From: Candidatus Spyradenecus sp.
GTDB lineage: Bacteria > Verrucomicrobiota > Kiritimatiellia > RFP12 > DVOR01
Reading direction: 5' to 3'
DNA: 64,000 nt
Assembly (NCBI GenBank): GCA_045613865.1
Contig: JAZLBT010000017.1
Span: 19,152-83,151 of the forward strand
Shown here: positions 4,536 to 57,306 of the stretch, in pieces
How positions within the stretch are numbered: position 1 is the stretch's first letter
Layout: the number at the start of each line of letters is the position of its first letter
Notes under the pieces: generated by a model
What the model was told of the DNA's origin: nothing
The model's input: only the letters and a program-made list of their open reading frames with translations
Database searches by the model: none
Position numbers and translations under genes: made by a program

Positions 4536-5704
4536 CACGTTTAAAGTGGTTGATTTTGGGTGGCATTTTTCTAGTCCTTCTTGGATTGGCTATTGGGGCA
4601 TGGTTGTGGTTTCGATCAACGCCAGAATTAATAATGCCGAAAGCCCCTGCACAACAAGTGCCGGCGCCGATAGTGTCGCAGTTTTTTGATGCGTCGCTTT
4701 CGGTGAAAGAGCGAGAGACAATGTTGCTCGCGATGCTTGAGGAGATGAATAATCCATTGCGTGCAGAACGTTGGATGGCGCGCGGTGATGCTTTGGCACG
4801 AAAAGTGCCTCAAGCAGCATTGGAGTGGTGGCTTGTGACATCTGCAAATACGTTTTGGCCAGCGGCAGATTTTGCTGTTGGCTGTGCGGCGCTTGAAGGT
4901 TATGGAATGCCGTATAATCGTGTTTTGGGAGAGGGAATGCTTTCGCGTGCAGTAACGTTTGGTTATGCACCTGCTTATTTGCGGCGAGAGTTATTACGTC
5001 GGGCAGCTGATTTGCCTCAGCTTTTTACTCCGAAGTCGGGAGAGGATTTCTTCTATCAAGGGCTTTATTTTGCTGCTGGCTATTATCGCGAGGTGTCGAT
5101 TGAGCAAGCAAAGGAAGCATGGACGCGCGCAATGGAATTGGAGCATGTAGAGGGGACGCTCTTCTTGGCATTCCAGTATTGTCGCGAGGGAGATATTGAA
5201 CAAGCAAAGGTATTGCTTGAGAAGATTGTAAAGGTTTCTGCTCCTGCAAAGTTGTGGCTTGCACGTTTATTGTTGGAGAATGAACAGGATGAAATGGCGC
5301 GGAAGCGTGCATTTGACTTACTGTGTTCGGTGTGCGAGGATGCGGAGTGTGGGGCAGACGCCGCTCTTTTACTTGGATGGTTGACGTTGAAATACGAGAT
5401 TGAGGGGGCGGAGACGCCTGCGGTCTATTTTAAAGCTTCGACAAAAGATGGTCACCCAATTGGGTATTTTATGAATGGCGTGTGTTGTTTTTATGGATTG
5501 GGTGGAGCTGTAAAGTCGACCTCCCTCGAGACGATTGCGAGTTTGCGATTAGCGGCGAATTTAAGAGTTGTAAATGCGCTATTTATGCTCGCTCATATTT
5601 ATGCCGAGGGTGAGGGTGTTGAACGTGATGATTGGACATCATTTAGCTATCAGCAACAGGTGAAAAAGATATTGGATGGTTTGCAACCGGAGGAGGGACA
5701 ATGA
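4532..5704 (+). CDS. Membrane-anchored Sel1/TPR-like repeat protein
   Basis: GGAGG ribosome-binding site and ATG overlapping the upstream stop. N-terminal transmembrane segment (WLILGGIFLVLLGLAIGAWLWF) followed by degenerate Sel1-like repeats (EQAKEAW..., GDIEQAKVLLEKI). Confidence 0.5.
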   Translation: MTRLKWLILGGIFLVLLGLAIGAWLWFRSTPELIMPKAPAQQVPAPIVSQFFDASLSVKERETMLLAMLEEMNNPLRAERWMARGDALARKVPQAALEWWLVTSANTFWPAADFAVGCAALEGYGMPYNRVLGEGMLSRAVTFGYAPAYLRRELLRRAADLPQLFTPKSGEDFFYQGLYFAAGYYREVSIEQAKEAWTRAMELEHVEGTLFLAFQYCREGDIEQAKVLLEKIVKVSAPAKLWLARLLLENEQDEMARKRAFDLLCSVCEDAECGADAALLLGWLTLKYEIEGAETPAVYFKASTKDGHPIGYFMNGVCCFYGLGGAVKSTSLETIASLRLAANLRVVNALFMLAHIYAEGEGVERDDWTSFSYQQQVKKILDGLQPEEGQ

Positions 5705-6520: not shown

Positions 6521-8074
6521 ATGAATCGAAGGGCGTTTTTGAAGATGATGGGTTTGGGTGCACTGATGGTTGCGCGTCCAAACGTTTTGCGTGCATGTGA
6601 GGCTGTGAATGTACCACGACGAGTACCACGTAATATTGTTTTAATCCTCGCAGATGATGTGGGGTATGGTGATATGAGTTGTTATGGCACAACGCCGAAT
6701 TTGACTCCTTTTATTGATGAATACGTGAAACGAGGTGTGCAGTTTATGGATGCACACGCGACGGCTGCAACGTGTACGCCTTCACGTTTCTCGTTGTTTA
6801 CAGGGGAGTATGCGTGGCGCCATCCTGGATTAATGGTTGCGCAAGGCGATGCCGCATTATTGATTCGTAAAGATGTGGTGACATTACCGAAATTGATGCA
6901 AGCATCAGGGCGTGTGACTGGCGCAGTAGGAAAATGGCATCTTGGACTCGGTACAGGCCCTGGAAAGACGGATTGGAATGGTGAGATTGCACCAAATGCC
7001 AAGGATGTTGGCTTTGATTATTCCTTCTTGATGGCTGCGACAGCAGATCGTACGCCATGTGTTTATGTTGAGAATGATCGTGTGGTGGGAGCAGATCCCT
7101 CAGATCCGATTGAGGTAAGTTATCGACACAATTTTGAGGGCGAGATGGATGGTGTACGTGATCGCGCCTCGCTCAAGATGGATTGGGATTATGGCCATAA
7201 TCAAGCGGTTGTTAATGGCATCGGTCGCATTGGTTATATGAAGGGTGGAAAGGCCGCACGTTGGATTGATGAGGATATGGCAGACGTTTTTGTTGAAAAG
7301 GCGAATGCTTTTATGGAGAAAAACAAAGATAAGCCCTTTTTCCTCTACTTAGGTACGAATGATATTCATGTGCCACGTGTTCCTCACCCACGATTTGTTG
7401 GATTAACACCATTTGGCCCTCGTGGGGATGCGACACGGCAGTTTGATGATACCGTGCGTCGTGTTGTTGAGAAGTTGCAGGCGCTTGGAATAGAGGAGGA
7501 AACGCTAGTTATTATTTCCTCTGATAATGGTCCAATGGTTAATGATGGTTATAAGGATCAAGCGGTTGAGAAGCTCGGAGATCATCGTCCTTCAGCACAT
7601 TGGCGTGGTCATAAGTATACGCCATATGAAGGCGGTCATCGTGTGCCGTTTATTGCAGTTTGGCCAGCTGTATTAGACGGTGGTCATCGTAGCCATGCGA
7701 TGCTTTCGTTGGTGGATATGGGGGCGACTTTAGCATCGCTTGTTGGAGTTCCGTTGCCGAAGGGCGCATTGCCAGATTCGTTTGATCAAAGCGCACTTTT
7801 CCTCTCGCCAACCGCGAGCTCTACACGTACTTCAATTCTCGCACAGAATTATCAACTTAATTTGCGTGACCAACATTGGAAGTATATTGTGCCACGTGCA
7901 GAAGGAGATTATCCTAAAGGTGGAAAGGATCCTTTAAAGGGAGAACTTTATAACCTTGATGCAGATCCGAGTGAAACGTTGAATGTTGTGAATCGTTTTC
8001 CAGAGCAGGCAAAGAAGATGTATCAAGCCGTCTTGAAGGCTGTTCAACAAGGGTATACGCGTCCTAATTTTTAA
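6521..8074 (+). CDS. Arylsulfatase (Cys-type sulfatase) with Tat-like signal
   Basis: 517 aa. MNRRAFLKMMGLGALMVA signal resembling a twin-arginine signal. ILADDVGYGD and C-T-P-S-R formylglycine motif. GTNDIHVP block. Confidence 0.9.
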   Translation: MNRRAFLKMMGLGALMVARPNVLRACEAVNVPRRVPRNIVLILADDVGYGDMSCYGTTPNLTPFIDEYVKRGVQFMDAHATAATCTPSRFSLFTGEYAWRHPGLMVAQGDAALLIRKDVVTLPKLMQASGRVTGAVGKWHLGLGTGPGKTDWNGEIAPNAKDVGFDYSFLMAATADRTPCVYVENDRVVGADPSDPIEVSYRHNFEGEMDGVRDRASLKMDWDYGHNQAVVNGIGRIGYMKGGKAARWIDEDMADVFVEKANAFMEKNKDKPFFLYLGTNDIHVPRVPHPRFVGLTPFGPRGDATRQFDDTVRRVVEKLQALGIEEETLVIISSDNGPMVNDGYKDQAVEKLGDHRPSAHWRGHKYTPYEGGHRVPFIAVWPAVLDGGHRSHAMLSLVDMGATLASLVGVPLPKGALPDSFDQSALFLSPTASSTRTSILAQNYQLNLRDQHWKYIVPRAEGDYPKGGKDPLKGELYNLDADPSETLNVVNRFPEQAKKMYQAVLKAVQQGYTRPNF

Positions 8075-12419: not shown

Positions 12420-12988
12420 GGTGCAACTTCTGTCGAAGGGGTTATAGTTTGTTCAATCGCAACGGGTTCTTCATGTTGTTGTTTGATGAAGAGCTTAGAA
12501 ATGAGAGAATCTTCACCAATTGCTCCCCAACGAATGAGTAAGCACACCGTGGTTACGCAAACAGCCGCGAGGAGAACGCCAAGCACGTTAGCAATATAAA
12601 AGGTCTTACGCTTAAAGGCAAAACAAAATGCACCGAGAGCCCCCGTTACCGCACCTGTTCCAGGGAGTGGAATGCCAATGAAAAGAGCAAGCCCCCATTG
12701 ACCATGCTTTTCCATAACGGGACGAAGGCGCTCTTGACGTTTTACAACGTGTGGCCAAATGCGTTCTTCAAAGAACTTAAATGTACGCATAATACGCAAG
12801 ATTGGAGCAAGCACTTCAAAGACGCCAATGCCAAGCAGAATGTTTGCCAAAGTACAAATTGCAACGACACTTGTCCAATGAAGCTGGTCGCTGAAGGCAA
12901 AGATACCCATTGGAATTGAAAAACGTAATTCCAATGCTGGAATACATGTGAAGACGAAAAGCCAGAAGATTGTGATAAACAAGTCCAT
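12416..12988 (-). CDS. Small integral membrane protein (COG2426-like)
   Basis: About 190 aa from the MDLFITIF start, which lies just after the CaCA stop. 4-5 transmembrane helices. No enzymatic motif. Confidence 0.5.
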   Translation of the reverse strand: MDLFITIFWLFVFTCIPALELRFSIPMGIFAFSDQLHWTSVVAICTLANILLGIGVFEVLAPILRIMRTFKFFEERIWPHVVKRQERLRPVMEKHGQWGLALFIGIPLPGTGAVTGALGAFCFAFKRKTFYIANVLGVLLAAVCVTTVCLLIRWGAIGEDSLISKLFIKQQHEEPVAIEQTITPSTEVAP

Positions 12989-19220: not shown

Positions 19221-19369
19221 ATAACATATAATAAAATAAATGCGCGAAATTATACCATATAAATAATATAAAGACAAGCGCGAATTAAACACCCCAAAAG
19301 GAGTGGACATTGTAAGTCTCCATGAGGGGAATATACCCTTTGATGAAAGGGACAAATTGTACCCTTTTT

Positions 19370-19452
19370 CAAACCCTATTGATTTGCTCGTCAAACCCTA
19401 TTGATTTGACCTTCAAAACCTATTGATTTCAAACGCAAAACAATAGGGTTTG
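19370..19452. repeat. Array of 4 copies of a 17-nt motif with 22-bp period (3 x CAAACCCTATTGATTTG, then 1 inverted CAAAACAATAGGGTTTG)
   Basis: Read directly. Lies in the 625-bp divergent intergenic region between the PPIase (-) and S8 protease (+) genes. The same motif recurs at 56.7 kb in the opposite orientation. Confidence 0.85.
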
Positions 19453-19518
19453 AAAAACACCCCAAATTCCTCCCATTTCCCAAAGAATTTCGAAGGATTT
19501 GATTTCACTTTTTCAATC

Positions 19519-35824: not shown

Positions 35825-35900
35825 TGGTGGAGGTAAGGAGAGTCGAACTCCTGACCTTTTGAATGCCATTCAAACGCTCTACCAACTGAGCTATACCCCC
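35825..35900 (-). tRNA. tRNA-Ala (anticodon GGC)
   Basis: Reverse complement GGGGGTATAGCTCAGTTGGTAGAGCGTTTGAATGGCATTCAAAAGGTCAGGAGTTCGACTCTCCTTACCTCCACCA. Cloverleaf folds, G3:U70 identity pair, anticodon loop ATGGCAT, encoded CCA. Confidence 0.9.
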
Positions 35901-36071
35901 GTAAAGGAATGCGAATAAGATATCATACCGCAAAATAAAATGCAAGTACTTTTTTAACCCAACCAATAAAATTCTCATTTTGAGCATAAATTATCGTTTA
36001 ATAATCCATTGCTTCCCTCTGCTAAGCACCCCATTAAAAACACCTAAAATCAAACGTAGGTTAAATGAAAT

Positions 36072-36203
36072 TCATTTAGGTACGGTTTGATTGTCATTTA
36101 GGTGCTGTTTGAACGTCATTTAGGTGCTGTTTGATTCTCGTTTAGGTGCTGTTTGAACGTCATTTAGGTGCTGTTTGATTCTCGTTTAGATGCTGTTTGA
36201 TAA
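36072..36203. repeat. 6 contiguous tandem copies of a 22-bp unit TC(A/G)TTTAGGTGCTGTTTGA(ACG/TTC)
   Basis: Read directly. Variants alternate between GAACG and GATTC ends. No spacers, so it is not a CRISPR array. An inverted half-site (CACCTAAA) sits just upstream at about 36047. Confidence 0.9.
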
Positions 36204-36315
36204 TTAATGTGCGTAGGTTTGAAAGTCGGTGGGTATGAACATTAGAATTAAGTGTATAGCAGTGGCATTTGGGTGGAATGTTTTAGAGGTGGTGGGATTT
36301 TGTGTGTGAAATGCT

Positions 36316-36344
36316 TTGACTTTAATTTTATCTTATGGTAATAT
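36316..36344 (+). promoter_or_regulatory. Sigma70-type promoter upstream of the oxidoreductase and giant-protein genes
   Basis: TTGACT, 17-nt spacer, TAATAT. Confidence 0.5.
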
Positions 36345-36416
36345 AAGTGTGAAAATTGTGTATTCGGCTTGTCGTGATGTGTCATTACGAAGCGAATACT
36401 CGAGAGAGAAGTCAAA

Positions 36417-37610
36417 ATGGCGAAAGAACAGCAAAAACTCAAAGTCGCGATGGTCGGTGGAGGACTTGACTCCTTCATGGGTAAGATTCATCGTGCCGCA
36501 ATCGAATCAAGCGGTTGTCTTGAGCTCGTGTGCGGAGCCTTCGGGTCGACACGTCAGCGTTCCTTCGACGCGGGGCGTGCAATTGGTCTTGATTTGAAGC
36601 GTGTTTACGGGGTTTACCGTGATATGTTTCGACGCGAATCAAAGATGCCTGCCGATGAACGCATTGACTTGATTACAATTATTGCGCCAAATAACATGCA
36701 CTATCCTGTGACAATGGCTGCATTTGACGCGAATTTACCTGTTTTCTCCGAAAAGCCAATGAGTTGCAATATGGATGAGGCGCAGAATCTTAAGCGTCGC
36801 ACATTGATGAGTCAGGAGTTTTATACAACGGCTTATTTGCATCCATTTTATCCAGCATTGGTGGCCTTGCGTGATTTTGTTTTGAATGCAGGTATTGGCA
36901 CGGTTCGTCGTGTTAATACGTGTTATTATCATGGTTGGATGGGCCCTCGTTTGGAAACAGCGGGGAATCGTTCAGCGATGTGGCGTGTGGATCCGCGGCG
37001 GTGCGGGTCGGGGGGCGCGATTTATGATTTGGCAGGTCCGTGCATGTTGCTCGCAGAGTGGGCATCGGGGCTTGCGGTAACGGCATTGTCTGCAGGTGGC
37101 CGTCCGGCAGTGGCGGGACGTGTTTTGGATGACGATGTGACGGTTCATTTGCGTTTTGATAATGGTGCGATGGGCTTTATCGCTGCAAGTCAGATTGCAA
37201 TTGGCGAAGCGGATGGCATGCAACTTTCAATCTATGGCGATAAGGGTGCTGTTCATTGGAAGCAGTCGACGGGTAATAAGTGGACGGTTGTTGATGTTGA
37301 TGGGCATCGCACGGAGAAGACTGTTAAGGGGGCACCCGTTCCAACGTTGGGTGAAAATCGTTTCGCAGAGCCGTATGGCGATGACGCAGCTTTCATTGCT
37401 GCGCTTGCTGAGGCATATAAAGATTTTGCGAATGTGATTTATGCAAATCGCGAAGGTAAAGCCTATGAGATGAAGTGTGTGGGCGTGGATGAAGCATTGC
37501 GTGTCGCAACGTTTAACGAACTCGCCTCTCGCAGTGTGAACCAGTCGGTGGAAATGTCGCCAACGAAGTGGCTCGCTTTTGATGTGCCAAAGGTCGAACT
37601 TCTTATTTGA
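36417..37610 (+). CDS. Gfo/Idh/MocA-family NAD(P)-dependent oxidoreductase
   Basis: 397 aa. N-terminal Rossmann KVAMVGGGLDSFMGKIHRAAI and a C-terminal GFO_IDH_MocA_C-like domain. Confidence 0.75.
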   Translation: MAKEQQKLKVAMVGGGLDSFMGKIHRAAIESSGCLELVCGAFGSTRQRSFDAGRAIGLDLKRVYGVYRDMFRRESKMPADERIDLITIIAPNNMHYPVTMAAFDANLPVFSEKPMSCNMDEAQNLKRRTLMSQEFYTTAYLHPFYPALVALRDFVLNAGIGTVRRVNTCYYHGWMGPRLETAGNRSAMWRVDPRRCGSGGAIYDLAGPCMLLAEWASGLAVTALSAGGRPAVAGRVLDDDVTVHLRFDNGAMGFIAASQIAIGEADGMQLSIYGDKGAVHWKQSTGNKWTVVDVDGHRTEKTVKGAPVPTLGENRFAEPYGDDAAFIAALAEAYKDFANVIYANREGKAYEMKCVGVDEALRVATFNELASRSVNQSVEMSPTKWLAFDVPKVELLI

Positions 37611-37768
37611 GGAATGTTTCACTCGGACTTACGAGACGCGCTGCAGAAATGTGGCGCGTTTGTTGTTTTAAGGTGTTTACAAGAAAGAACAGGTGGGGGG
37701 TGTTTTAGATTTTCATAGAAAAATGTGGCTGAAAGTGATATTATATATGTATAAAGATGGGGAATCGC

Positions 37769-40700
37769 ATGAAATTATTATTTGCTCTTTTATCACTCTT
37801 TTTTGTGACGGCATTTGCGCGCGCAGAATTGACTTATTGTGTCTATGACATTGCAACAAAGACGGCAACCCAATTGGATGCCTCGAATGTTACGGTCATA
37901 GATGAGAATTATCGGAATGGGTCAAAGATTCTTTTTGTTCAAGATTCTGCAATTTCGACTGATTATTATATCGGGGTGTTTGAACTTACAAATGCTCAAG
38001 CATCCGCATTGGGGTGGACTGTTTTAAGTAGTATGACGTCATATGCGGGGACGGGGAGTGGTTTTTCTCCGCCTGCGGTGAGTGCCTATGATCAAGCACT
38101 TTCATTTCCAACAGTGGATCAGTGGCTCGCTTATGCAGGCACGCCACAGGAGATAGAGAAAGGTGTGTGTGAATACAATGTTCATTTTGGATGTTATAAT
38201 GTTCTTGGTCGACTGACAACATCAAGCACGTTGGAGGCTTGGATTGAACGCGAGGCATGGCCGTATGCTTCTAGCCATGGTACGTATGATATTTTTGGTA
38301 ATGTTGCGGAATATACGCAAGACGGCACCTTTCATGGGGGGGCATCTGCTTTTGATCCAAATAGTGCAATAACCTATAACGATCTTTGTAATTTAGCATC
38401 TACGAATTATGCATTGACCAATGATCACGAGGAAAAACACTATCTTGGTGTGCGTTTAGTATATACGCCACAAGTAGAGGGTGCTTATGATGTTTATTTG
38501 CGTGTGGAGGAGGGTGAGGTTAGAACAAATGGAACCCCTCAGGCCGAGGGCACTTATGCGGGCACGTATAAGTGTGATCGTAGATCCGCAGTTGCTTTCG
38601 TTTCAACGCTTCAACTCCCACAGTGGGCAGAGGCTTACACGGCAACATATGTTGAAGTAGAAGGTGGAGAAGAGAAAACGATTCAAGGTTCTTATACGCC
38701 AAATGAAGATGGGGAATTTGAATTCTCAGTTCCTGCGTGGATTCCGATTCAAGCCGTGATAACGTTGACACCAACGATTGCAACGTATCCCAAAGTGCAG
38801 TTTGAGAATATTGAGGTGGAGATTGTAAGCGGCGAAGCCTTTAATGCAACGTATTATCTTCCAGGAACAAAACTTTCGCTCACACCGAGTACGCTTGAAC
38901 ATCATACGTTTGTCAAATGGTCGGATGATAAGACCGCGACGCCTTATTCATTGACGTTGGAAAAGAATCAAACGTACATATTATCACCCGTTTATGATAA
39001 AGAACCTCATGTGACGATTACTAATGGTTCGGCAACTGTCACTGCCGGAGAAAGTACGGGTGATGGTTATTATCGCGTTGGAACAGAGATTGTGATTGTC
39101 CCAGAAGATCGCACGAGAACGGAATATCAAGCATTTTATCGTTGGGTTTATGGTAGTGCGTATGATACGACGGCAGAAAAACAGGTTGGGCCTTTAAAGG
39201 CAAATGATGTTTTGACTTATGAAGCCACTTATCAATATTATCCTAAAGTGATTGTGAATGATGGCGAGGTTGAGGTTCTTCAAGGGGAGGATCTTGGAGA
39301 AAACCATTATACTGCTAATGCAAGCCTTAAACTAAAAGCTAAGGATAAGACAAGTGAATGCAAGGTTTTTACGCGTTGGTCTGAAAATAGCACATCTACA
39401 AATACTGAGATTACAATAACCGCAGGCGCTTTAAAAGTTAAAGAACCCGCAACGGCAACTTATACTGCAAACTATGGAATGGCTCCTCAAGTACAAGTTG
39501 TGGGTGCGACGGTTAGTGTCGTTAGCGGTGAGGCATATGGGAATGGCTATTATAGCGTTGGTGCGCAATTGAAGTTGACGCCGACACCGGCTGTGCGTGA
39601 GGTCTTCCAATCGTGGACAGTGACAGGCGGTTCTCAACCGAGTGCACAAGGGGATGGAACGTACATTGTTGATGTTCCTGCCGTGGAGAAGGTTGCGACT
39701 TATACAGCGACGTTTGCTTCTGCGCCTCGCGTGATGGTCGAAAATGGCACAATAACCCTCGCCTCCGGCGCCGACCTTGGCAATGGTTATTACAGCGTGG
39801 GCTCGAAATTGACGTTAAAGGCGACTGCACCGAAATATGGAACATTTTATCAGTGGAAGAAGGACTCTACCATCGTGTCTACGAGTGAATCGTATACGAT
39901 TACGGTGCCTACTTCTGGTGAACAAAAGTTTGTCGCGACATTTCAGTCTTATCCGCGTGTATTTGTTAATGGCGCAAAGGTTGTTGTGACAAGTGGAACA
40001 AGTTATGGTGATGGTTATTATAGTGTAAATGCACAGTTGGAATTAACGCCAACTGTTCCCACGGGTTATAAGTTTACAAAGTGGTCGAATGATTCGACGA
40101 ATATTCCACTTACGATTAGAGCAAAGGGATATAATTCTAAAGAGAGCTATACCGCCAAATATGAAATTCAATCCGTGACAGCACAAACGGGGCATGCACT
40201 TGGCGGAATGGAGAATTTGCCTTTCGGCTGGTATGCCTCTGAAACGAAAACGTTGACTTTCGGCTCGAATACCTATACATATCCAGTCCTGAAGCGGGCT
40301 ACGACTGCGGTTGTAACGTTTGAAAATTTGACGACAACGAGTAATGTAGGCTATGATCAAACATCGTTTGATGATTCAACAAAGTTGACGTTTAAGTATG
40401 TTGACCCATTACAAATTGATAATAACTTGGATTTTGGAAATAAACCGTTTGCGGGAAACGGCACAATGAAATCAAAGGATGAGCTTCGAGCAATTCAACC
40501 TTATTATCTCGCGATGACAGAGGTGTCAAAACGTCAGGCGTATACGTGGGATAGTAAAAATGGAGGTTTAGAGGCGATTCCTTATGAAGTCTCGTCGTTA
40601 AGTGCTGCAGAAAGTGCAATCGCCGCAATGACGGGGAAATTTACGGCTTCAACAAAGACAACGGTGCGTCCAACGTTTGGTTTGCCCACATTGGGACAAC

Positions 40701-41863
40701 TCCAAGCTGCTGCAATTTTAGGATACACGAAGGCGAATCAAGAAAAGGGCGAAGCGCTTCAGACGGCGGTTTATTCTTACGCAGAACAAGGTGGGAATGA
40801 GTATCCAAATAAAACTATTGCTGCCGTAAATAGTGCGAATGTTGGTCAAACAAAAGCAGGTTTTTATGGCCTTATCGGGAATGCCGCAGAATGGATGGAT
40901 GGAGACTCGACAAACGTTTACGCAGGTGGTTTTTGGAGTAATAATGTTGGTGTTTACATAGTTCAAACAGCGACCAAAATGAAAGGTTGGGGGATGCGTC
41001 CCCTAATTACAACAGAAAATATCGAGTGCGTGAATGTGACGCTATCAATAGGTGGTAAATCCGAGACGTTTGCGTTTCAAAAGAATGCAACGATTAATCT
41101 TGGGACTCCAACAATGGCGAATAAGCGTTTCCTCGGGTGGCGCGTTGGTTCGAGTATAACAACGTCAAATGCAACAACGTTTAAGGTTACGGGTGCGACA
41201 ACCTATACCGCTGTATATGACGATTTAGTGCTTTCAACCATTACCTATATCGATTGCAATGGGGCGACATCATTACCGAAGGGTGCAACAACGGTTGTTT
41301 ATCCAACACCTGAAGGTGTAACAAAGACCTTTGCACGTTGGGAAGTGACGGGTGGCACGATGTCTGGCAATGTCTTTACCCCGACAGCTGCAACTGCGAC
41401 GGTCAAGGCCCTTTATACGACTACCGTTTCGACTGTAAGTTATGTGGATTGTACGGGACCGCAGTATGTTTCTATTGGCTCATCGGTACAAGTCTATTAC
41501 ACGCCTTCTACGGATCCAACAAAGACCTTTGATCGTTGGGTTGTAACGGGTGGCACGATGTCTGGTAATGTTTTCACGCCGACGGCTGAAAATGCGACGG
41601 TAAAGGCGACCTACAAGTCAAATGTAGTGGATGTTGTTTATGTGAATTGTTCGGGTCCCAAGACGATACGATTAGGTGGATCAGAACAAATTTATTATGT
41701 TGATCCTCCTGTTGGACAGGTATTTGATGGTTGGTCGGTTAGCGGGGATGCTACGATTGATAATAAGGGCGTTCTTACGGTGAAGGCAACGGCAACTGGG
41801 TCTCTCACAGTAACTGCGAATTATAAGAAAAATGCGCGGGGCTATATTCTTCGTTTAAAATAG
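37769..41863 (+). CDS. Large secreted multidomain protein: two degenerate FGE-sulfatase (SUMF1/DUF323)-like domains plus about 10 Listeria/Bacteroides-type B repeats (Flg_new-like)
   Basis: Signal peptide MKLLFALLSLFFVTAFA. Domain 1 contains YDIFGNVAEYTQDG...HYLGVRLVY. Domain 2 contains GFYGLIGNAAEWMDGD...GGFW...GWGMRPL. Repeats follow the pattern F(T/Q/A/D)(R/K/S/G)W with blocks ending ...TYTA.Y. Near-identical repeats at the C-terminus. Confidence 0.6.
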   Translation: MKLLFALLSLFFVTAFARAELTYCVYDIATKTATQLDASNVTVIDENYRNGSKILFVQDSAISTDYYIGVFELTNAQASALGWTVLSSMTSYAGTGSGFSPPAVSAYDQALSFPTVDQWLAYAGTPQEIEKGVCEYNVHFGCYNVLGRLTTSSTLEAWIEREAWPYASSHGTYDIFGNVAEYTQDGTFHGGASAFDPNSAITYNDLCNLASTNYALTNDHEEKHYLGVRLVYTPQVEGAYDVYLRVEEGEVRTNGTPQAEGTYAGTYKCDRRSAVAFVSTLQLPQWAEAYTATYVEVEGGEEKTIQGSYTPNEDGEFEFSVPAWIPIQAVITLTPTIATYPKVQFENIEVEIVSGEAFNATYYLPGTKLSLTPSTLEHHTFVKWSDDKTATPYSLTLEKNQTYILSPVYDKEPHVTITNGSATVTAGESTGDGYYRVGTEIVIVPEDRTRTEYQAFYRWVYGSAYDTTAEKQVGPLKANDVLTYEATYQYYPKVIVNDGEVEVLQGEDLGENHYTANASLKLKAKDKTSECKVFTRWSENSTSTNTEITITAGALKVKEPATATYTANYGMAPQVQVVGATVSVVSGEAYGNGYYSVGAQLKLTPTPAVREVFQSWTVTGGSQPSAQGDGTYIVDVPAVEKVATYTATFASAPRVMVENGTITLASGADLGNGYYSVGSKLTLKATAPKYGTFYQWKKDSTIVSTSESYTITVPTSGEQKFVATFQSYPRVFVNGAKVVVTSGTSYGDGYYSVNAQLELTPTVPTGYKFTKWSNDSTNIPLTIRAKGYNSKESYTAKYEIQSVTAQTGHALGGMENLPFGWYASETKTLTFGSNTYTYPVLKRATTAVVTFENLTTTSNVGYDQTSFDDSTKLTFKYVDPLQIDNNLDFGNKPFAGNGTMKSKDELRAIQPYYLAMTEVSKRQAYTWDSKNGGLEAIPYEVSSLSAAESAIAAMTGKFTASTKTTVRPTFGLPTLGQLQAAAILGYTKANQEKGEALQTAVYSYAEQGGNEYPNKTIAAVNSANVGQTKAGFYGLIGNAAEWMDGDSTNVYAGGFWSNNVGVYIVQTATKMKGWGMRPLITTENIECVNVTLSIGGKSETFAFQKNATINLGTPTMANKRFLGWRVGSSITTSNATTFKVTGATTYTAVYDDLVLSTITYIDCNGATSLPKGATTVVYPTPEGVTKTFARWEVTGGTMSGNVFTPTAATATVKALYTTTVSTVSYVDCTGPQYVSIGSSVQVYYTPSTDPTKTFDRWVVTGGTMSGNVFTPTAENATVKATYKSNVVDVVYVNCSGPKTIRLGGSEQIYYVDPPVGQVFDGWSVSGDATIDNKGVLTVKATATGSLTVTANYKKNARGYILRLK

Positions 41864-56667: not shown

Positions 56668-56757
56668 TCAAATCAATAGGTTTTGATCGTCAAATCAATA
56701 GGGTTTTGATCGTCAAATCAATAGGGTTTGGACTTCAAAACAATAGGGTTTACTTTT
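56668..56757. repeat. Array of 4 tandem copies (22-23 bp period) of TCAAATCAATAGGGTTT, same family as the 19.4 kb array but in the opposite orientation
   Basis: Read directly. One copy lacks a G and the last is TCAAAACAATAGGGTTT. Solitary copies occur at about 56925 (CAATAGGGTTTGAAAAG) and about 57664 (TAATAGGGTGAAAAAC). Confidence 0.85.
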
Positions 56758-57256
56758 TCAACTGATTGCACCATGGGCGAGCGAGAACCTCATTTGCCTA
56801 ACATATTGCCGTGTCAATCATTCCGTACCATCTGTTTTCGTGTCGGAAATTGGCAGTAGAAAATTGCGTGGATTGTACTATTCCTGCCACTCTAAAATTA
56901 GTACAAAATATGACAAATTGATGCAATAGGGTTTGAAAAGACTATAAAATGGCAATAAAAGTGGTGGTATTTATGGTCACCTTTTTATAAAACCGATGGG
57001 TTGGCACAACGCGTGTTTTTCGAGATTTGTATTGTTTTTGAGGTGAGATTTGATGGAGTCATTTTTATGCTATGAGAGCGATTTGGGTGAATTGTTTTTG
57101 CGATCAAATGAATTCATTTTCTACTGCAAGGTTCTGTGTTTTTAATATTAAAGATAAGGTGTAACGAAAAGAGTGATGTTCATCACGAATAGTTGCATAA
57201 GTGGGAGAATGCGGCGTGGGTTTCTTGAATAAAAACTAGAAAAATAAAAAAAGTGC

Positions 57257-57285
57257 TTGCATGGTATAGTGGGATTTGTTATACT
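57257..57285 (+). promoter_or_regulatory. Sigma70-type promoter of tRNA-Ser
   Basis: TTGCAT, 17-nt spacer, TATACT. About 20 nt upstream of the tRNA 5' end. Confidence 0.6.
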
Positions 57286-57306
57286 ACACGCCGATTTTTG
57301 GTTTTA

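Follow-up and report, generated by a model that had tools for sequence, protein, structure and literature searches.

A promoter-side array of 22-bp direct repeats in Candidatus Spyradenecus and its possible place in a dispersed family of phased core-plus-linker arrays

What is a compact block of six 22-bp direct repeats doing between a tRNA gene and an oxidoreductase operon in an uncultured gut lineage? The block, which we call the B array, lies at positions 36072–36203 (plus strand) of a 64,000-nucleotide stretch of Candidatus Spyradenecus sp. contig JAZLBT010000017.1, referred to below as the window. Our tentative answer, to which we assign a probability of roughly 0.4, is that the B array is one member, diverged, specific to its lineage, and recently re-amplified, of a dispersed family of “core plus linker” arrays, and that it has the form of a phased landing pad for a protein.

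The units of the B array, read directly from the sequence, run head to tail without interruption from 36072 (u1, TCATTTAGGTACGGTTTGATTG) through 36094 (u2, TCATTTAGGTGCTGTTTGAACG), 36116 (u3, TCATTTAGGTGCTGTTTGATTC), 36138 (u4, TCGTTTAGGTGCTGTTTGAACG), and 36160 (u5, identical to u3) to 36182 (u6, TCGTTTAGATGCTGTTTGATAA). They have the core TTTAGGTGCTGTTTGA, followed in u1 to u6 by the linkers TTG, ACG, TTC, ACG, TTC, and TAA. Tandem Repeats Finder (TRF) reports the array with a period of 22 (5.9 copies, 84% matches, score 183) and, with a better score, with a period of 44 (2.9 copies, 94% matches, score 223). Since the longer period outscores the shorter one, two unit variants alternate and the pair has been duplicated as a block. 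This homogenized interior (u2 to u5, 36094–36181) carries one 16-bp core throughout and forms a 44-bp higher-order repeat, in which the variants are distinguished solely by unit position 3 and by the 3-bp linker (ACG vs TTC); deviations from the 16-bp core are restricted to the two edge units. The 16-mer core has six occurrences at the array, against 0.75 expected in the whole window, and none of 100 shuffles reached seven. The original prediction, made from the sequence alone, had described six contiguous 22-bp tandem repeats with two alternating unit variants and an inverted half-site upstream, and all of this was borne out, the half-site being CACCTAAA at 36042–36049, the reverse complement of TTTAGGTG.

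A repeat search extends the register of the B array by one decayed unit on each side, giving a total footprint of about 176 bp (36050–36225). Unit 0 (36050–36071, plus strand, TCAAACGTAGGTTAAATGAAAT) combines a reversed TCAAAC frame with TAGGTT..TGA and forms an imperfect hairpin with u1, while unit 7 occupies 36204–36225 (plus strand, TTAATGTGCGTAGGTTTGAAAG). Slightly further upstream, 36033–36056 (plus strand), which contains CACCTAAA, is a possible remnant of a unit in reverse orientation. The sequence CGTAGGTT recurs at 36055 and 36212, on either side of the six units; we considered it as a target-site duplication and attribute it to the periodicity of the array itself. The 44-bp higher-order repeat, together with the decayed edges, shows recent local amplification by unequal exchange. 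The B unit is non-palindromic. A sub-period of 11 bp (OmpR or PhoB type) was rejected, the two halves of the unit agreeing at only 4 of 11 positions, as were arrays of extracytoplasmic function (ECF) or sigma-70 promoters within the units, which contain no acceptable −10 element.

Could this structure be a neutral minisatellite? Under such a reading, a dispensable spacer sequence was expanded by replication slippage or unequal crossing-over, has no function, and inherited its 22-bp period from an ancestral unit. Head-to-tail units with a 44-bp higher-order repeat, identical inner units, and decayed edges are indeed the classic signature of unequal exchange, and in this respect the B array resembles a variable-number tandem repeat (VNTR). 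Moreover, the array is absent from a relative, L246, whose oxidoreductase is 88% identical in amino acid sequence, and the 16-mer core search found no copy of the B core outside the array in the window. We regard the neutral minisatellite as a genuine possibility, if on balance an unlikely one; the findings that stand against it come from a comparison of arrays across the lineage.

In 185 kb of non-redundant DNA from the window and related gut Kiritimatiellae, we found that 10 of the 14 tandem repeats with a period of at least 10 have a period of 22, 23, or 44. These arrays span seven unrelated-looking core families and reach a density of about one per 18 kb. In relatives at 70–74% amino acid identity, they comprise TCAAACCCGTACGGGTTTGAAA-like units in L242 (the C type, three copies at two sites, within a 367-bp repeat that is present twice, inverted, with 84% identity), GAAACCCCAGGGGTTTC with a 5-bp linker in L248 (four copies), TTCACCTATAGGGGAAC with a 6-bp linker in L249 (the E array, four copies, in a genome that also has a second 23-bp family), and CTACCCTTGGGGGGTA-type units in L262 (three copies). 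The recurrence of a 22- to 23-bp period in seven core families and several species is a class-wide preference for a single period that sets these arrays apart from a VNTR and speaks against a neutral minisatellite.

The columns that vary are, in every array, grouped within a short linker whose length does not change (3–6 bp). The per-array P values for this contrast between core and linker are 0.03, 0.07, 0.14, 0.06, 0.004, and 0.02, and combining the six independent arrays by Fisher's method gives about 5e-5; for the inner B units, P = 0.03. The E array of L249 is the clearest case (P = 0.004), with a 17-bp core that is invariant in four units, whereas four of the six linker columns vary (at least nine substitutions) and no two linkers are alike. 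Since recent neutral duplication would reproduce linkers and cores with equal fidelity, the array cores appear, from these sequence comparisons, to be maintained, and the combination of hypervariable linkers with invariant cores is a second difference from a VNTR. In the palindromic families (C and D), variation is confined to the left half, the right half (GGGTTTC or GGGGTTTC) being invariant. These changes are one-sided rather than compensatory, which argues against a hairpin, whether in RNA or as a cruciform, as the selected feature.

The arrays are also multi-copy. The A type, described below, is found at three sites in 64 kb and again in the relative L259, and the C type is present in two copies in L242 and at contig breaks, whereas the B core has one known site, in the window. 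Four contigs of sister assemblies end exactly in or at arrays (L243 at both ends, L259 and L263 at the start, L261 at the end), as expected for multi-copy repeats. With respect to genes, each of the 10 arrays is upstream of one gene or more; of the eight that could be classified, six are flanked by divergent genes and none by convergent ones. Given that divergent intergenic DNA is estimated to make up about 40% by length, the bias toward divergent locations has P of about 0.05.

Within the window, the B array can be compared with the A type, whose unit is TCAAATCAATAGGGTTTGATCG (the CAATAGGG arrays of the original prediction) and which forms two arrays and one solitary core elsewhere in the window. 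The A1 element (19365–19457) contains three reverse units followed by one forward unit (<<<>; units at 19369–19456). It has perfect 17-bp terminal inverted repeats (TTTTTCAAACCCTATTG) and is flanked by TACCC and CACCC, considered as a target-site duplication, which agree at four of five positions with a chance of about 0.016. Because A1 is only 58 bp upstream of the ATG of a surA-like gene at 19310, A1 probably lies within the promoter or 5′ leader of that gene. The A2 array (56668–56775, plus strand) has four forward units, one of them 23 bp long, and a decayed reverse unit, and the solitary core (CAATAGGGTTTGA) lies at 56924–56936 (plus strand). The three array-bearing intergenic regions of the window have nothing in common outside the arrays. 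We also observed that 56838–57013, between A2 and a tRNA-Ser promoter, is the peak of predicted curvature in the window and contains the solitary A core, and that the same interval carries a terminator-like hairpin (56963–56981, plus strand).

How closely are the two types related? The original prediction had derived their kinship from a 13-of-22 match between the units and from a shared TCA-N11-TTTGA frame. The count is correct, but after taking the best of 44 rotations and strands it is barely above chance by itself (P of about 0.04–0.055), and the nine differing positions are about what neutral drift would yield, a point in favor of the neutral minisatellite (expected identity of about 0.51 at the distance given below). 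The exact frame is present in four of the six B units, but in only one unit of each A array. Kinship nevertheless finds support elsewhere. The contiguous block GTTTGA-N-CGTCA is common to both types at the unit junction (P of about 0.002–0.003), and the edge units of the B array (GGTACGGTTTGA in u1 and GTAGGTTTGA in unit 7) are nearer to the A core (ATAGGGTTTGA) than the homogenized inner units are. In particular, TAGGTTTGA in unit 7 is nearer than the inner units to TAGGGTTTGA of the A unit.

Further support comes from the same locus in L259, the closest relative available, whose oxidoreductase gene is 96% identical in amino acids and 86% in nucleotides. The L259 contig starts inside an array of the A type, situated about 285 bp upstream of the orthologous ATG; reverse units (TCAAAGCCTATTG..) come first and a single forward unit (CAAAACAGTAGGGTTTGAAAA) follows. 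Although A1 occupies a different locus, it is 86% identical to this array over 65 bp, with 40 of 44 positions identical in the center. Between the window and the L259 genome, fourfold-degenerate sites differ at 48.5% (Jukes–Cantor [JC] d = 0.78), i.e., neutral sites are saturated, so that unconstrained DNA is expected to be about 51% identical. From this divergence, it would follow that the A-type unit is constrained or was moved between lineages recently. Conservation of the A-type unit at 86–91% between genomes with saturated neutral sites is the third point on which these arrays depart from a VNTR and from the expectation for a neutral minisatellite. Saturation also means that flanks that cannot be aligned upstream of the −35 element need no special explanation, and we therefore withdrew the proposal of a “cassette replacement” between the window and L259.

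These observations point to the following scenario for our preferred reading, the re-amplified member of a core-plus-linker family. Each unit would consist of a 16- to 19-bp core and a 3- to 6-bp linker with free sequence and fixed length. Since the linker length is fixed, cores would recur every 22–23 bp, i.e., at two helical turns, so that all of them would face one side of the DNA. Such a geometry would suit a landing pad on which a DNA-binding protein occupies several sites cooperatively, as in plasmid iterons and the ends of Tn7 and Mu. We infer that a protein binds the arrays and that the B array has retained this binding. The architectures of A1 (<<<>), of the L259 array ((<)<<>), and of the B array (< followed by six to seven >) share the order of reverse unit(s) followed by forward unit(s). 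Thus, an ancestral A-type element of this order was probably present at the locus beforehand; its forward arm may have drifted to the B core, which would then have expanded via unequal exchange or slippage of the 44-bp double unit. We put this A-type ancestry forward as a conjecture from sequence resemblance. Of the A unit, the B array retains nothing but the junction block GTTTGA-N-CGTCA, and its specificity may therefore have changed or disappeared.

Several findings weigh against this reading and account for its modest probability. The original prediction suggested looking for a cognate DNA-binding protein (for example Rep-like or winged-helix), but none was identified in Pfam scans covering about 46 of the roughly 50 predicted genes in the window, and nothing DNA-binding or mobile is encoded near the B array. 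Within the window, the B core has a single site, and its inner units are identical through recent duplication, hence they carry little information on constraint on the B core. The similarity between the flanks of the B array and the center of the A element is weak (P of 0.02–0.13); specifically, for the remnant at 36033–36056, P is 0.13 against A1 and 0.024 against the L259 element. Ordinary transcription factors would not readily account for the many core families per genome (A and B in the window, E and F in L249). Finally, L246 has no array at the orthologous locus and keeps the promoter, such that the array is dispensable for the promoter. Searches with the 14-mer ATCAATAGGGTTTG in genome contigs and with the 16-mer B core in metagenome contigs returned single chance matches, with no locus holding at least two among the matches listed, from patterns that are too short for collections of that size.

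The position of the B array raises the question of whether it serves the adjacent promoters. As had been predicted, the array lies in a 516-bp non-coding gap, which extends from the end of tRNA-Ala(GGC) (35825–35900, minus strand) to the oxidoreductase ATG at 36417. On the tRNA side, reading by eye suggests a promoter TTGCAT-N17-TATCTT with an A-rich tract upstream (35917–35945, minus strand), which is absent from the promoter-scan output; the edge of the array is about 105 bp upstream of its −35 element. The tRNA-Ala and tRNA-Ser genes are preceded by a common motif, GT(G/A)CTTGCAT-N17-TAT(C/A)(T/C)T (35917–35945, minus strand, and 57258–57286, plus strand, respectively), which has an A-rich tract upstream and probably represents this organism's type of tRNA promoter. 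On the other side, the promoter scan places a sigma-70-like promoter of the oxidoreductase operon, TTGACT-N17-TAATAT with a TG, at 36316–36344 (plus strand), and the array ends 91–113 bp upstream of its −35 element. The B array thus sits midway between divergent promoters, with each −35 element about 100 bp away. The first gene downstream encodes a Gfo/Idh/MocA oxidoreductase (36417–37610, plus strand), the relatives of which are named Candidatus Spyradenecus and Kiritimatiellae and come from gut and other metagenomes, and the next encodes a 1368-aa surface-type protein (37757–41863). An exact-protein look-up of the window oxidoreductase and of P0001 returned no record.

A dedicated operator or enhancer, through which a transcription factor would regulate the oxidoreductase/giant-protein operon, tRNA-Ala, or both, would be well placed here, with the array centered some 100 bp upstream of each −35 element in a region of divergent promoters; the winged-helix factor named in the original prediction would fall under this reading. 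Its two-turn spacing would fit cooperative binding of the kind seen with AraC-, ArgR-, or TyrR-type regulators. Strong intrinsic curvature is predicted for the B array (top 0.1% of windows in a wedge model), but this is mostly a by-product of any 21- to 22-bp period, given that the array falls at the 6.6th percentile of shuffled-unit arrays and that the other families are not curved. Relatives with saturated neutral sites conserve both the promoter and the beginning of the leader (TTGAC-N17/18-TGnTAATATAAaTGTGAAAAT; window 36316–36370, L246 325–385, L247 492–545, L259 250–300), yet the array at this locus is absent in L246 and L247 (88% and 82% amino acid identity), both of which keep the core promoter and the gene start, and belongs to another family in L259. 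In L001 (85%), the upstream gene is different and there is no array. The array thus turns over between species at a locus whose promoter does not. Furthermore, no regulator gene is adjacent, and within the class an array may lie anywhere from 58 bp to more than 500 bp away from the gene start. As such, we find a dedicated operator very doubtful. For the species of the window, a single genome is on record. Elsewhere in the lineage, L249 and L260 are 99.99% identical and have identical arrays, and in a comparison of L262 with L263, two of the five mismatches fall inside an array, at a contig-end position that we do not trust.

Alternatively, the array could act at the RNA level, as a transcribed RNA with repeated motifs, such as a protein sponge whose hairpin loops contain AGG, or as a 5′ leader. 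The forward A unit can fold into a hairpin of 7 bp that has the loop AAUAG, the 3′ edge of the B array carries a promoter-like site, and a terminator-like hairpin follows about 210 bp downstream of A2. Against this, no Rfam match was obtained even at E up to 10, with tRNAs alone at gathering thresholds, and predicted folding is of ordinary stability on both strands (z = −1.5 and −1.7). The B unit lacks a palindrome and the changes in families C and D are one-sided, both of which disfavor a structured RNA, as does the orientation of the array relative to the downstream gene, which is opposite in L259 and the window. Features of a Csr/Rsm-type small RNA (sRNA), namely its own promoter and terminator, GGA hairpin loops, and an Rfam match, were not found together at the B array. 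We therefore consider an RNA element highly improbable.

The terminal inverted repeats of A1 raise the question of mobility. In this explanation, the arrays would be remnants or miniatures, akin to MITEs (miniature inverted-repeat transposable elements), of a transposon with several 22- to 23-bp transposase sites per end (as in Tn7, Mu, Tn552, and Tn5053); the B array would be a decayed, locally expanded end, and selection at the level of the element would keep the cores. Each end of Tn7 is a row of 22-bp sites for TnsB, with four on the right, partly overlapping, and three on the left, and specificity arises from several weakly conserved sites at the correct spacing (PMC9308760). Ends of the Tn7/Mu type resemble the arrays here in having 22-bp sites, three or four per end and contiguous at one end; the perfect 17-bp terminal inverted repeats of A1 are a further likeness, and the four-of-five agreement of its flanks would fit this reading. 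Several core families per genome, dispersal, contig breaks, and conservation across species would be natural for mobile elements, and the L249 E array adjoins a serine recombinase gene. However, there is no transposase gene in the window, beside any array examined, or in about 120 kb of the relatives' loci, and no cargo was seen. The termini are TTTTTCAAACC rather than TG...CA, no target-site duplication is certain, and the six to eight units at the B locus exceed any known end. Arrays D, E, and G have no inverted partner and B has a decayed one only, while A1 and the L259 element have one. We also considered A1 and A2 as the two ends of a single element and rejected this, since the 37 kb between them consists of core genes (trmD, clpB, PBP, hemB).

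The gene context bears on mobility as well. Pneumococcal interspersed repeats are parasitic and enriched between convergent genes, and composite interspersed repeats are species-specific and sometimes affect the expression of neighboring genes (PMC3049150). In contrast, the arrays here are on the promoter side and none lies between convergent genes. Pneumococcal BOX (boxA-boxB(n)-boxC), enterobacterial BIME/REP, and Neisseria NIME elements are likewise dispersed, intergenic, and modular, with an internal module in tandem and in variable number, and the modular structure with a tandem internal unit that defines BOX and BIME is present in our arrays; unlike BOX, however, the unit is 22 bp rather than the 45 bp of boxB, and the two-turn period is strict. 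Taken together, we judge a transposon-derived origin of the B array to be rather unlikely.

Six direct 22-bp repeats with an inverted partial copy nearby are also the textbook layout of replication iterons, which in plasmids have units of 17–22 bp in two to seven copies and bind cooperatively in a manner dependent on helical phase (PMC4980987). Like the iterons of R6K, pPS10, RK2, F, and P1, the B array combines direct repeats, two-turn phasing, a conserved core with less constrained spacers, and a nearby inverted partial copy. The original prediction had called the array iteron-type, and this holds for the architecture of the class (conserved core, free linker of fixed length, two-turn spacing), but not for a replication or Rep-like system. 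Among the scanned open reading frames (ORFs) of the window, Pfam detects no Rep, Par, mobilization, transposase, or cas genes; no DnaA box lies within about 2.7 kb of the array; and BLAST of the 516-bp gap against plasmids and phages gives no similarity. Unlike iterons, the B array has neither a Rep initiator nor a DNA unwinding element (DUE) nor a replicon and sits between housekeeping promoters, and the Kiritimatiellae arrays are many per chromosome, about one per 18 kb, with several unrelated cores. Cumulative GC skew climbs across nearly the entire window, with minor local dips and no sustained reversal; the plus strand thus appears to be the leading strand throughout 1–64000, with neither origin nor terminus inside. 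An integrated plasmid or secondary origin with iterons in the strict sense is therefore excluded by context and effectively refuted: the B array is not an origin. Nor is it a CRISPR array, as had been recognized from the lack of spacers, since the units are contiguous, the linkers are 3 bp long, unique spacers of 25–40 bp are absent, and the window scans show no cas genes.

The scanned ORFs themselves all have housekeeping functions: UvrD, MutS, Tex, a SurA-like protein, TrmD, ClpB, PBP, an XerC/D-like protein, and HemB, and further FabH, GDH, RarA, DAHP synthase, LptA/B, and HprK. GC skew is positive over most of the window regardless of gene orientation, with three exceptions of at most −0.12 (16–20, 34–36, and 54–56 kb).

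Taken alone, the B array is a short and dispensable stretch of spacer, and its value lies in the class it reveals: an uncultured gut lineage with about one short tandem array per 18 kb, nearly all with a two-turn period, conserved cores, free linkers, and a promoter-side location. The array family is previously undescribed, our literature search having found no description of this class, and the B array adds to the known iteron-like site arrays and composite interspersed repeats. If a protein does read the arrays, the PVC superphylum would have a layer of architecture or regulation, or a mobile-element family, that is new. In practical terms, the arrays fragment short-read assemblies of these metagenome-assembled genomes (MAGs). 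A much broader version of our reading, which we consider decidedly speculative, would posit a genome-wide system of roughly 100 or more phased 22- to 23-bp arrays read by a fast-evolving DNA-binding family that organizes promoter-upstream architecture, with the B array as a specificity-switched paralogue of A; domesticated transposase-like proteins or new nucleoid-associated proteins would be candidate readers, and in some genera the arrays would join purine-pyrimidine tracts and 7- to 9-bp repeats in a fixed order upstream of genes, all as part of the same doubtful joint claim.

Some further observations concern the arrays and their surroundings. In GC-richer relatives, we noted composite upstream modules of fixed order at L242 4335–5070 and 17735–19100, L248 20760–21000, and L262 6154–6400, in which a 22-bp array is followed by an alternating purine-pyrimidine (Z-DNA-prone) tract of 90–150 bp, 7- to 9-bp tandem repeats (e.g., TCCAAACT), a promoter, and a gene; the genes behind these modules are guaB, der/tig, gyrB, and that of a Zip transporter. 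L249 has two 23-bp arrays, at 4815–4902 and 12434–12524, one located 26 bp downstream of a small serine recombinase gene (4928–5572, minus strand) and the other upstream of two paired genes, one for an N6/N4 DNA methylase and one for a ResIII-like protein. Scans of viral contigs with two-unit A and B patterns gave no matches; those with generic frames returned unrelated 22-bp palindromic arrays in phages and giant viruses, which are an analogy only.

Other repeats of longer period were also encountered. The gene of the 1368-aa protein contains a 141-nt direct repeat (41320–41460 and 41518–41658, 76% identity), corresponding to internal protein repeats. In L244, positions 6660–7066 hold 2.5 copies of a 163-bp unit at 100% identity, the consensus of which is tRNA-like by appearance, making it a candidate tandem duplication of a tRNA gene. 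Near the start of the window, a perfect 33-bp tandem duplication (TTGTCGAACGTTGTTGGGCCTTTTAGGATGTTG, two copies) lies at 699–768, upstream of the UvrD-like gene at 910–2838.

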